Source: Abditibacterium sp. (GTDB lineage Bacteria; Armatimonadota; Abditibacteriia; Abditibacteriales; Abditibacteriaceae). Taken from it: a DNA stretch of 64,000 bases. Each line of letters begins with the position of its first letter. Position 1 is the stretch's first letter. Positions 24,001-27,000 of the stretch are shown piece by piece. The position numbers are program-made. The stretch covers positions 1,568,001 through 1,632,000 of the forward strand of contig CBDASK010000003.1 in assembly GCA_965199495.1 (NCBI GenBank), given 5' to 3'.

Positions 24001-27000
24001 AACCGTGATACGACTCGTCGGGATTGTCGAACAACGGATGCTGCCCGGCTTTCCAATCGAATTTGCCGCCGTCAATCACGATGCCGCCGATGCCAACGCC
24101 GTGACCGCCGAGCCATTTCGTCAGCGAATGCACCACGATGTCGGCGCCATGTTCGAGCGGATTGGTGAGATAAGGCGTCGAAAAAGTCGCGTCCACGATC
24201 AAGGGCACGCCGTGTTCGTGCGCGGCTGTGGAAATCGCGTCCAAATCGGAGACTTCGAGGGCGGGATTGGAAACGGTTTCGCAGAAGAACGCGCGCGTTT
24301 TTTCGTCGGCGGCGCGGGCAAAGTTTTCCGGATCAGTCGAATCCACAAAGCGCACTTCGATGCCCATTTGCGGAAGCAACACGTCGAATTGGGTGAACGA
24401 ACCGCCATAAAGATTGCGCGCCGAAACGATGTTATCGCCCGCTTGCGCCAGATTGATAATCGAATAAAAGACCGCGCTCGAACCAGAAGCCACGCCCAGT
24501 CCGGCCATTTCGTGGGCGCCTTCGAGCATCGAGACGCGTTTTTCCAAAACGTCGGTCGTCGGGTTCATCAGGCGCGTGTAGATGTTACCCAGTTCTTTGA
24601 GGGCAAACAGATTGGCGGCGTGTTCGGCGCTTTTGAAAAGATAAGCCGAAGTGCGATAGACCGGCACGGCGCGCGAAAGCGTATCGCTATCGGGCTTTTG
24701 GCCGCCGTGCAGACAAATTGTATCGAATTTCATGGGAGCGGCTTAGTCTAATTGAGCGCAAAAACTGTGGCTGCAAATCGTAGGGGCTTGCCGCGCAAGC
24801 CCCAGACGTGAATACGGCTTACGCGGCAAGCTTTATTTAATTCTAAAAATTTTGTGGAATAACCAAACAATGTTCTCACTCATGACACATTGCGACATCA
24901 AAAGCGGTCTAATATCTCCTTGACCCCCGGCGGAACGTTTGGCTTTTGTCTTCGTTTATTCAAAGGAGACGAGAGTTGCCTTGCAACAGCATTTTGTGTT
25001 ATAAGGTAGAGTTGCGTTTCCCCGCACCAAGTTAAAACTTCGGTTTGATTGAACGTATAAAATCGTTTTGCAGACCGATTGAACATCTTTAAAACTGCCG
25101 CATTTAAAAGCATCTTTCCGATAAGAGCCAAGAATTGTCATCCAAAACACGCCTTTTTCAACAGAACCTGAACCCGCGAGGGCTAAGGTTTTTTGTGTGT
25201 CTGGGGCGCACGCGGATGAAGAGGAGCAAATAAACACACTGAATGAGCAAGCAATATCCACAAGGCAATAACTCGCGCGGCGTCGAAGCCACGTCGTCGG
25301 CCCTCCCCGATGCCGTCGCGGCCTGGGTCAAGATGGCGCAGAAAACGCCGTTGCTCACCGCCGCCGAAGAAAAAGAACTGGGTCGCCGCATCGCGCGCGG
25401 CGACGAAGCCGCCTATAAACGCATGGTCGAGGCCAACCTGCGCCTCGTCATCACGATGGCTTTGAAGCAGTTGCATCAGGGCCACAATCATTCGCTGACG
25501 TTGGCCGACCTGATTCAAGAAGGCAACTTCGGCTTGATGCGCGCCGCGCGCAAATTCGATCCAGCATTGGGCTACCGTTTCTCAACCTACGCCTCGTTCT
25601 GGATTCGCCAAGCCATGAGCCGCGCCATCGCCGATCAAGCCAAGATGGTGAGAGTCCCGGCGCATATCGCCGAACTCACTAAAACCGCCTATCGCACGAT
25701 TGCGACGCTGGTTCAATCGTTGGGTCGCCAGCCGACAGTTGAAGAGTTGGCGCACAAGTTGGACGTGACCAAAGAGACCGCCGAATTGGTGTTGAAGAAC
25801 ATGGCCGAAACGTTTTCGCTCGACGATGAAATCGGCGATAGCGGCGACGGCGAAGATTTCGTGGATATGCTGCGCGACGTGGATGCCATCGTGCCCGAAG
25901 AGGCCGCCGAAACCGCGATTCTGCGCGAGGAAGTGCGCTCGGCGCTGGACGAATTGACCGAACGCGAACGCGAAGTCGTCAATATGCGCTACGGCCTGAG
26001 CGGTGGCCGCGCCCACACGCTGCAAGAGTTGGGCGCGCACTTCAAAGTCTCGCGCGAACGCGTGCGCCAAATTGAAGGTCAGGCTTTGCGCAAACTGCGC
26101 AAAGGCGGACTGAACGACGCAGTGAATTAGGACGACAAAATAGAAAGAGCCTGCGATGAATTTCGTAGGCTCTTTCTATTTTGATCGGGGGAACAATGAA
26201 AACGCTTTATTACCCGCTTTGGTATCGTCTTGATAGCGTGAATCGTTACCTGATTTGGATCACTCAAATGGAAGCAGACGAAGATTTGGATGGCGTTTGG
26301 CTCGATTTAAACGGCAAAATCCCCGTTTTTCGTTCGCTCGATGCGCTGTGCGCTTACGCTCAAGACAGGAAAATAATGCTTCAAGACGACGAACCTATTT
26401 TGCATAATTTGGACGTGATAAAGCGCTGGCTAAAAGTCAAGCGTTCCAAAGCGCAGGGGCCGACTTCGATTGATTGCGACGCGTTTTTGGCCGCGTGGAA
26501 TTTCTTCGCCGATGTCTCGCGCTCCCTTGGCGGTGGCTTCGATGCTGACCGCGAGCGCACAAAGAAGATTTATCTCAAGATTTTTTATGGCAACAATTTG
26601 CCCGCAATTACGCCCGCAGGGGAATATTATGTTCCGCGCTGGTCGAATCGCGAAAAGCGGATAATCCGCGAAATCATGACTTACGGTTTGAAAATGCTGC
26701 GTGCCAATGTCGCATACGTGCCATAGCGTTTGCGGCGGCGCAATCGAATTAGTAAAATTGCTCCAATTATGAAATCTGCCCAATTGTTTGTTGCCGCTTT
26801 ATCGCTTACGAGCGTCAATGCGTTTGCCCAACCCAATCCGGTTGCGGCGCCGATGGTCGCGCCCAAACCTATTTTAGCGCCGATTGATGGGACGAATTGG
26901 AGCGCGATAGCCGTGCGCAACGTGCCACCTTCACTTATCGCATGGCAACTCGACCAAAAACACAACGCGATGCCCGCGTTTTTCAACATGCCTTACGCGC

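Follow-up and report, generated by a model that had tools for sequence, protein, structure and literature searches.

The primary sigma factor is held to be irreplaceable, and region 1.1 and a promoter-melting Trp dyad are its textbook marks. The window analysed here, a stretch of 64,000 nucleotides from an Abditibacterium genome (G000), encodes a sigma-70 protein with neither, g01524 (sigma A), and elsewhere the same genome encodes a region-1.1-bearing relative, g04069 (sigma B). According to the survey's finding, sigma B is an eroded RpoD and sigma A the likely primary sigma factor, which raises the question of which protein carries housekeeping transcription in Abditibacteriaceae and from which ancestor each descends. 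Promoter motifs, residue matches, dN/dS and codon bias together support the survey's candidate, and we conclude that sigma A is probably the main housekeeping sigma factor of the family, the function having passed from RpoD to this group-2-like paralog.

Abditibacteriaceae lack a canonical RpoD

A six-frame search of G000 (4.8 Mb) recovered sigma A and sigma B as the only group-1-like sigma factors, together with two SigB/F-like proteins above the ECF class. None of the 27 Abditibacteriaceae genomes reached the cut-off of the RpoD model TIGR02393 (354 bits), whereas 69 of the 121 genomes sampled across the phylum passed it. Within the genus of G000, the best score was 250.1 bits; sigma A itself scored 248.9 and the sigma B proteins 184–206, the range given by the survey, with g04069 at 195.5 bits. 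The near-invariance claimed for sigma A also held, with 96–100% identity in 12 of 12 congeners. In the other genera, identity is 87–90% in 12 of 14 genomes; G022 has only a contig-end fragment, and none was found in G014. The claim of just two group-1-like sigma factors is correct for the genus (0 of 13 genomes with a third) and fails beyond it, where 11 of the 14 genomes, and one more in partial form, carry sigma C, the source of the top TIGR02393 score in Abditibacteriaceae (284.7 bits).

Sigma A lacks region 1.1 and keeps its promoter-reading residues

The features of the locus are collected in Table 1. An in-frame stop codon lies immediately 5' of the sigma A ATG, so no region 1.1 can be concealed upstream; Pfam matched regions 1.2, 2, 3 and 4, and the region 1.1 model PF03979 gave no match, in agreement with the earlier description of a 295-residue protein without this region. 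Fewer than 40 residues precede region 1.2 in 15 of the 25 orthologs, and scanning of five further N-termini gave no PF03979 match. The replacement of the first Trp of the melting dyad by Phe proved to be general, with F-W in 25 of 25 Abditibacteriaceae orthologs and Trp at the W433 position in 31 of 31 outgroup RpoDs. Region 2 retains the core-binding residues of region 2.2, carries a four-residue insertion in 2.1–2.2 and has Gln at the Tyr394 position.

Table 1. Sigma A and its flanking elements, in window coordinates
Feature	Position	Strand	Basis
Sigma A gene g01524, 295 aa, sigma-70 without region 1.1; proposed housekeeping sigma factor	25243..26130	+	Open reading frame and profile matches
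Region 1.2 (about aa 23–56), first helix diverged	25309..25410	+	Pfam PF00140, 35.5 bits on aa 34–56; alignment
Region 2 (aa 61–133)	25423..25641	+	Pfam and alignment; Gln437 and Arg441 equivalents present
Phe119-Trp120 codons, F-W at the W433-W434 melting dyad	25597..25602	+	Sequence and ortholog alignment
Region 3.0 (aa 137–144)	25651..25674	+	Arg451, His455 and Glu458 equivalents retained; Val454 equivalent is Ala140
Region 4.2 helix-turn-helix	26014..26103	+	-35 residues intact; Pfam region 4, 71.6 bits
ECF-type promoter motif GGAAC-N16-CGTT, 311 nt 5' of the start codon	24932..24956	+	Motif count
Terminator-like hairpin 3' of the stop codon	26136..26183	+	-34.1 kcal/mol; z -9.6 against 200 shuffles

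Residues R584, E585, R588 and Q589 of region 4.2 read the -35 box. Their equivalents in sigma A (aa 271, 272, 275 and 276) are invariant in all 25 orthologs, as are those of Q437, R441, R451, H455 and E458. Missing are W433, Y394, V454 (replaced by Ala) and R468, each of which is 99–100% conserved among the 1,002 primary sigma factors in Table 3 of PMC4593229, where the W-dyad is given as invariant. With regions 1.2 to 4.2 close to those of group 1 and region 1.1 absent, sigma A falls into group 2 of the sigma-70 family. Its promoter-reading residues are a group 1 trait, whereas region 1.1, the W-dyad, an RpoD-level TIGR02393 score and descent from rpoD are wanting. The hairpin 3' of the stop codon suggests that the gene is transcribed alone, and dnaG does not lie beside it. 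A database protein from an Abditibacteriaceae bacterium is 86% identical; an AlphaFold single-sequence model was poor (mean pLDDT 46) and was left out of the evidence.

Sigma B is intact and has lost promoter-reading residues

Sigma B (contig positions 4551974–4553230, minus strand, 418 aa) matches region 1.1 with 45.7 bits, far as it falls below the TIGR02393 cut-off. PF03979 matched 22 of 23 tested sigma B N-termini, 21 of them exceeding the cut-off, and none of the tested sigma A and sigma C N-termini. The W-dyad persists in 21 of 25 sigma B proteins, as does the core-binding motif of region 2.2. In the G000 genus, sigma B carries Q437R, H455E/D, R588H/N/G and Q589E/D in 13 of 13 genomes and has also lost the E458 equivalent; the recognition helix is rewritten and acidic, and the protein has a pI of 4.7 and a net charge of -30. 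The degeneracy reported for regions 2.4 and 4.2 is real in this genus and only partial in the others, which often retain Q589 (11 of 12), R588 (8 of 12), E585 (8 of 12) and Q437 (8 of 12). Judging by these residues, sigma B outside the G000 genus could still read consensus promoters, and the handover may be less complete in genera whose sigma B retains more of region 4.2. The promoter-reading residues vary between genera, and Q437R is also seen elsewhere, in a sigma clade that is conserved in other families. The 32% identity 'to SigA' given by the survey fits the comparison of sigma B with sigma A (31.8%); against canonical RpoDs, sigma B is 36–49% identical over the core.

We detected sigma B in 25 of the 27 genomes and considered whether its loss might prove it dispensable, an argument we rejected because the misses resemble assembly gaps: in G025 the upstream neighbour stops at a contig end, and in G016 two stretches were examined without yielding the neighbouring gene either. 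In G014, frameshifts hit sigma B, its neighbour and rpoB alike. The two missing copies and the frameshifted one are best read as assembly faults. Being intact and under purifying selection (see below), sigma B is re-specialised rather than decaying, a description that fits better than 'eroded', and it may now serve as an alternative sigma factor or a core-binding competitor.

Sigma B descends from RpoD and sigma A from a paralog

A search with P0039, a sigma A relative with 66% identity, led to G136 (Abditibacteriales), the sister of Abditibacteriaceae on RpoB (support 1.0, 498 columns). An intact group-1 sigma factor, found in 0 of the 27 Abditibacteriaceae genomes, is present in G136 as a near-canonical, dnaG-linked RpoD (348.8 bits) with region 1.1 and W-W. 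G136 also carries orthologs of sigma A, already with F-W and Ala454, and of sigma C.

In other Armatimonadota, dnaG lies immediately 5' of rpoD (34 loci). No sigma gene adjoins dnaG in any of the 27 Abditibacteriaceae loci, save for one 18.8-bit helix-turn-helix match on the opposite strand; beyond dnaG, the loci extend for 6 kb in G000 and for no more than about 0.7 kb in the other genomes. tRNA(CAU) genes of the same sequence type lie 3' of sigma B in 12 of 25 loci and 3' of dnaG-linked RpoD in five outgroup loci; in G000, the tRNA of this type is located elsewhere. As a synteny marker, rpoZ was discarded: sigma B is divergent from it in 16 Abditibacteriaceae loci, but no sigma gene adjoins it in five of five outgroup genomes. 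A one-residue insertion in region 2 is shared by 25 of 25 sigma B proteins and the G136 RpoD, giving a spacing of 19 residues, and occurs in 3 of 43 other RpoD rows; 40 of the 43 have 18. The G136 RpoD is the sole best hit for 19 of the 25 sigma B proteins and tied for two. A tree from which clade D and three long paralog rows were omitted unites sigma B with the G136 RpoD (86/86), whereas trees with the long paralog rows, and a first FastTree, place it outside RpoD, which we read as long-branch attraction; the 47-row tree is a quick tree only. AU tests gave no grounds for rejecting a grouping of sigma B with RpoD (p-AU 0.32 and 0.31). From synteny, the shared insertion, best hits and the tree, we infer that sigma B is the true RpoD ortholog, which now puts the survey's assignment of g04069 on four kinds of evidence.

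A single clade (97/93 and 100/99) unites sigma A and sigma C with the region-1.1-less sigma factors of two sister families, f34 and f15, and nearly all its members have Tyr or Phe at the Trp433 position and an insertion of three or four residues in region 2. The f34 and f15 genomes with such paralogs also hold a canonical RpoD. Topologies joining sigma A to the G136 RpoD (p-AU 0.015) or to the G089 and G053 RpoDs (0.014) were rejected, whereas one uniting it with the full set of RpoD rows was retained (0.063). On this phylogeny, sigma A is a descendant of a group-2-like paralog. The ancestor had a dnaG–rpoD pair and region-1.1-less paralogs with a Y/F-W dyad, as G136, G089 and G040 do today; on the Abditibacteriaceae stem, rpoD (sigma B) left dnaG, accelerated and lost promoter-reading residues, and sigma A froze.

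Sigma A evolves like a primary sigma factor

We compared sigma factor identities with those of RpoB from the same genomes (G040 and G053 absent; pairs of kin are not independent). At 75–80% RpoB identity, sigma A averaged 91.2% (119 pairs) and outgroup RpoD 90.5% (4 pairs), against 48.7% for sigma B (102 pairs) and 53.1% for sigma C (22 pairs); at 80–85%, the figures were 96.2, 89.2, 61.0 and 58.7%, respectively. Once RpoB identity reached 70%, every outgroup RpoD pair was at least 80% identical, whereas sigma B averages 48–61% there and drops to 41–49% when G000 is compared with other genera (RpoB 74–77%). Across 14 pairs, dN/dS was 0–0.050 for sigma A and 0.063–0.349 for sigma B; sigma B is under purifying selection. 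Among 3,207 genes from a crude gene call, codon bias relative to 18 ribosomal-protein genes placed sigma A at percentile 99.0, groEL at 99.2, rpoC at 98.2 and sigma B at 70.3, with the same outcome for a mixed reference set. Ultraconservation alone is not diagnostic, since a paralog in family f5 outconserves the RpoD with which it coexists (97% against 85% identity between two genera).

Housekeeping promoters match the residues kept by sigma A and have shifted in grammar

An unseeded two-box motif search of 43 tRNA upstream regions recovered cTTGACa-17-TAaAAT (log-likelihood 205, against 59–66 in three shuffles), with a site in 28 of the 43 regions compared with 3.3 in shuffled sequence. Three tandem TTGAC-17-TAnAAT promoters are predicted 5' of the single 16S gene found, at contig positions of about 1860550–1860740. 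Promoters of the Bacteroidetes type, TTTG/TANNTTTG, were not seen at tRNA and rRNA genes, which have the TTGAC-17-TAnAAT form instead. Gene-upstream regions gave a modest peak at 17-bp spacing (91, against 48–68 at other spacings), and high-scoring sites occur in only about 4.6% of 2,164 such regions (about 2% in shuffles), so that most promoters fall outside this assignment. Genome-wide word counts 5' of genes, a weak search in which palindromic repeats dominated, yielded no second promoter class. Because sigma A keeps the reading residues, sigma B has lost them and there is no third candidate, sigma A is the sigma factor predicted to fit the rRNA and tRNA promoters in the G000 genus.

The promoters themselves have changed. 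With only the core hexamers scored, the TG of the extended -10 element was present in 10 of 51 Abditibacteriaceae tRNA promoters (four genomes), against 37 of 52 in the outgroup (five genomes of f2, f15 and f34, with the 30 top tRNA loci taken in each search) and 10 of 22 in G136. Abditibacteriaceae have lost the extended -10 T, and promoter grammar shifted on their stem. V454 may contact the T at -15, and W433 and Y394 speed promoter opening, according to the sections of PMC4593229 that also treat the roles of Q437 and the W-dyad in promoter reading and melting. Sigma B has likewise lost V454, and the -15 shift therefore cannot tell the two proteins apart. The six bases 3' of the -10 box have a T fraction of 0.49 and 0.42 in Abditibacteriaceae and of 0.23, 0.19 and 0.20 outside; base composition alone does not explain this T-rich discriminator, because the spacer AT content of G136 is similar (0.43, against 0.44–0.47). 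A T-rich discriminator would melt more easily and may offset the loss of W433 and Y394. We also considered CarD as a melting helper: a PF02559 query found only Mfd-length frames or contig-end pieces in 27 of 27 Abditibacteriaceae and 5 of 5 outgroup genomes, so the absence is not specific to the family.

An ECF-type motif precedes the sigma A gene

The pattern GGAAC-N16/17-CGT(T/C), chosen after seeing the sequences themselves, occurs 5' of sigma A in 15 of 25 Abditibacteriaceae loci from four genera (shuffle mean 0.16) and in none of 24 sigma B, 11 sigma C and 31 RpoD loci. The motif also precedes 21 other genes in G000, including dnaK, rpoB, iscA, rpmE and a cold-shock gene (named by sequence likeness), and is found in 9 of 25 Abditibacteriaceae rpoB loci. 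No strong consensus promoter lies within 330 nt 5' of sigma A in G000 (best score 11); the sigma A genes of G136 and three genomes of genus g3 also carry a site of housekeeping type that ends in CATAAT. The start site expected from the ECF motif lies near window position 24965. Table 2 of PMC10012870 lists the same kind of motif for the non-essential group-2 gene sigB of Corynebacterium, and the principal sigma gene of Streptomyces is described in PMC12019637 as transcribed by an ECF sigma factor. By analogy, the motif may cut both ways: the promoter is SigB-like, yet principal sigma genes can use ECF sigma factors too.

Weighing the handover against its alternatives

Under the proposed handover, sigma A would direct RNA polymerase to the TTGAC-17-TAnAAT promoters of housekeeping genes, those for rRNA and tRNA included, and would read them with its regions 2.4, 3.0 and 4.2, which are intact. 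Phe119, a smaller wedge than Trp, could continue to stack against the -12 base pair; melting would probably be weaker, and the T-rich stretch 3' of the -10 box may compensate. Ala at the V454 position presumably goes together with the missing T of the extended -10 element. Sigma A, rpoB and dnaK would all gain additional transcription from an ECF stress sigma factor. Sigma B, with its region 1.1, core-binding residues and mostly intact W-dyad, would survive as a secondary sigma factor, with changed specificity, or as a competitor for core. Several observations count against a handover: sigma B is retained under purifying selection, the ECF promoter of sigma A is SigB-like, a conserved paralog stands beside RpoD elsewhere, sigma A is without W433, Y394, V454 and R468, its grouping with all RpoD rows is unrejected, and sigma B joins the G136 RpoD at only 86/86 in a restricted set of rows. 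Further points on this side are the presence of Q437R in another conserved clade, the loss of V454 from sigma B as well, the reading residues that sigma B keeps outside the G000 genus and the low proportion of gene-upstream regions with a high-scoring site.

That sigma B is still the sole primary sigma factor, if an unusually fast-evolving one, with sigma A a highly conserved SigB- or RpoS-like stress sigma induced by an ECF sigma factor, strikes us as very improbable. Only sigma B fits the textbook definition of group 1 by region 1.1 and W-dyad (as worded in the parts of PMC4598750 and PMC4593229 consulted), the ECF motif precedes sigma A, whose ancestry lies among paralogs coexisting with RpoD, and f5 offers a conserved paralog beside a canonical RpoD. 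Yet the rRNA and tRNA promoters have near-consensus -35 boxes, which the acidic, rewritten helix of sigma B in the G000 genus (R588 and Q589 lost in 13 of 13) would suit poorly, no outgroup RpoD pair of comparable RpoB identity has diverged as sigma B has, and the ECF motif also stands 5' of rpoB, with the Streptomyces principal sigma gene likewise ECF-driven. A division of labour, in which both proteins are needed and sigma A reads the -35-dependent rRNA and tRNA promoters and sigma B another essential promoter class, is somewhat easier to entertain and in our judgement still unlikely. Its appeal lies in the retention of sigma B with region 1.1 and the W-dyad, in the small share of gene-upstream regions with high-scoring sites and in the precedent of mycobacteria, where PMC6529629 reports SigA and SigB co-transcribing housekeeping genes. 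It sits poorly with the low identity of sigma B between genera and with its middling codon bias; the reading residues of sigma B differ between genera, implying no common class of sigma B promoters, and the weak search saw no second class. Shared work would be conceivable above all in genera whose sigma B keeps most region-4.2 residues. Finally, every genome is below 100% estimated completeness (63–97%), so a canonical rpoD could in principle be missing from the assemblies and the whole pattern an artefact. This reading is already largely refuted, and we give it almost no credence: none of the 27 genomes reaches the RpoD cut-off, even among assemblies of 1, 2, 2 and 3 contigs, the dnaG loci have no sigma gene bar the single weak match, and sigma B itself is the RpoD ortholog.

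We thus favour the handover to sigma A. More tentatively, and as a combination that may well not hold in all its parts, sigma A would be the only essential sigma factor, without region 1.1 and the Trp dyad, after a complete handover traceable through G136; promoters would have co-evolved, by loss of the -15 T and gain of a T-rich discriminator, to suit weaker melting; and what was once RpoD, acidic in both region 1.1 and the recognition helix and with a net charge of -30, would act as a decoy that binds core and thereby sequesters or slows RNA polymerase.

Relation to known sigma factors and implications

Sigma A would resemble sigma-ABfr, the primary sigma factor of Bacteroidetes, which lacks region 1.1 (Vingadassalom 2005/2007, as cited in PMC6847099, PMC12632263 and PMC12641261), in being a housekeeping sigma naturally without this region across a lineage. 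In Bacteroidetes, regions 2.3–2.4 and 4.2 are altered and promoters are TTTG/TANNTTTG, whereas Abditibacteriaceae keep canonical -35 and -10 boxes. Further differences are that sigma A is not RpoD itself but a paralog, that the genuine RpoD survives alongside, and that the sigma A dyad reads F-W. The group-2 SigB of mycobacteria, which shares housekeeping transcription with SigA in the account of PMC6529629, and that of corynebacteria are likewise region-1.1-less paralogs with a GGAAC-N16/17-CGTT ECF promoter and, as proposed here for sigma A, a housekeeping role in growth. SigB acts beside an intact, essential SigA, whereas the SigA ortholog of Abditibacteriaceae is without reading residues and evolves far faster than its paralog.

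Group 2 sigma factors are defined as lacking region 1.1 and being non-essential, in the wording of PMC4598750 that we consulted. Sigma A resembles group 1 RpoD/SigA in its conservation and in the residues with which regions 2.4, 3.0 and 4.2 read bases, and sigma B does so in region 1.1, in ancestry and mostly in the W-dyad; unlike in group 1, neither protein has the full set, both score far below 354 bits and the linkage to dnaG is lost. The proposed principal sigma gene has an ECF-type promoter, as does Streptomyces hrdB, driven by the ECF sigma ShbA in the description of PMC12019637. HrdB, however, has the W-dyad and is a normal group-1 sigma factor. The motif of ShbA, CGTAAC-N16-CGATGA, is also not the one found here, which sigma A has in common with rpoB and dnaK. 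In a search of the openly accessible literature, we found no paper on sigma factors of Abditibacteriaceae or on displacement of a primary sigma factor.

If the handover is real, an essential sigma factor can be displaced by a paralog, here one of group 2 descent with F-W. Canonical outgroups, the G136 intermediate, genera with a partly degraded RpoD and the G000 genus would form a natural series for the co-evolution of sigma melting residues and promoter grammar. In practice, gene annotation and phylogenies based on rpoD would settle on the wrong gene in Abditibacteriaceae.

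Sequence context of transcription in the genome under study

The 16S rRNA gene is preceded by three near-identical tandem promoters at intervals of about 79 nt, and TTCTTCTT comes after every one of them. Intergenic word counts in this genome are dominated by abundant palindromic repeats with TAG-N19-CTA and GAC-N13-GTC spacings (z > 25), which are REP- or MITE-like.

Features and loci (window or contig positions; L, extracted loci; P, extracted proteins)
Feature	Genome or family	Position or locus	Remarks
Tandem 16S promoters	G000	contig 1860550-1860740	
Three tandem paralogous small proteins	G000	window 26730-29769	signal peptides; directly downstream of sigma A locus
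SigB/F-like fusion sigma	G000	contig 3358904-3360382 (L002:4905-6383)	
DEAD/DEAH helicase	G000	L144:8555-13972	directly upstream of dnaG
Tailed sigma A orthologs		P0015, P0020, P0022, P0024-P0029	
RpoD erosion	f9	L130, L501, L507, L508	
RpoD erosion	f12	L111	
RpoD erosion	f8	L118	
RpoD erosion	f32	L121, L124	
RpoD erosion	clade D	L112-L117, L131, L502, L509	

Sigma variants and their neighbours

One lineage of orthologs of A, the proposed housekeeping sigma (88-90% identical), carries a histone-H1-like C-terminal tail of 100 residues, acidic first and then Lys/Ala-rich. On the short contig G018:C163 (L024/L031), A is present twice as identical, inverted copies, likely an assembly artefact. The small proteins downstream of A are putatively secretin-like, named by eye from their resemblance to type II/III secretin C-terminal regions. 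Sigma C, a third group-1-like sigma, has been lost in the genus of G000; a moaD/moaE-like pair lies directly upstream of it in 11 of 11 loci (L034-L044, L068). The C-terminal domain of the SigB/F-like fusion sigma gave no Pfam match and looks like a degenerate GGDEF, a likeness clearer in the ortholog from the sister genome G136 (L442).

The helicase next to dnaG (1,805 aa, with a DUF1998-like end) possibly marks a defence island. In the DnaG frames of G016 and G001 (1,044 and 1,080 aa; L175, L176), the zinc-binding region is followed by an inserted segment that is probably an intein.

RpoD erosion across the phylum

In G041 (family f16; L129), the sole group-1-like sigma found is dnaG-linked, lacks region 1.1 and scores 343 bits against the RpoD profile, resembling the simple loss of this domain in Bacteroidetes. 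Erosion of RpoD was seen repeatedly across the phylum, in f9, f12, f8, f32 and clade D. No sigma in f8 or f32 exceeded ~270 bits. In f9, region 1.1 was not found in the dnaG-linked sigma; in three of the four genomes examined, this sigma has a lower score (284-303 bits) than a conserved paralog carrying the Q437R change (~330 bits). These cases may represent independent handovers of the housekeeping role.
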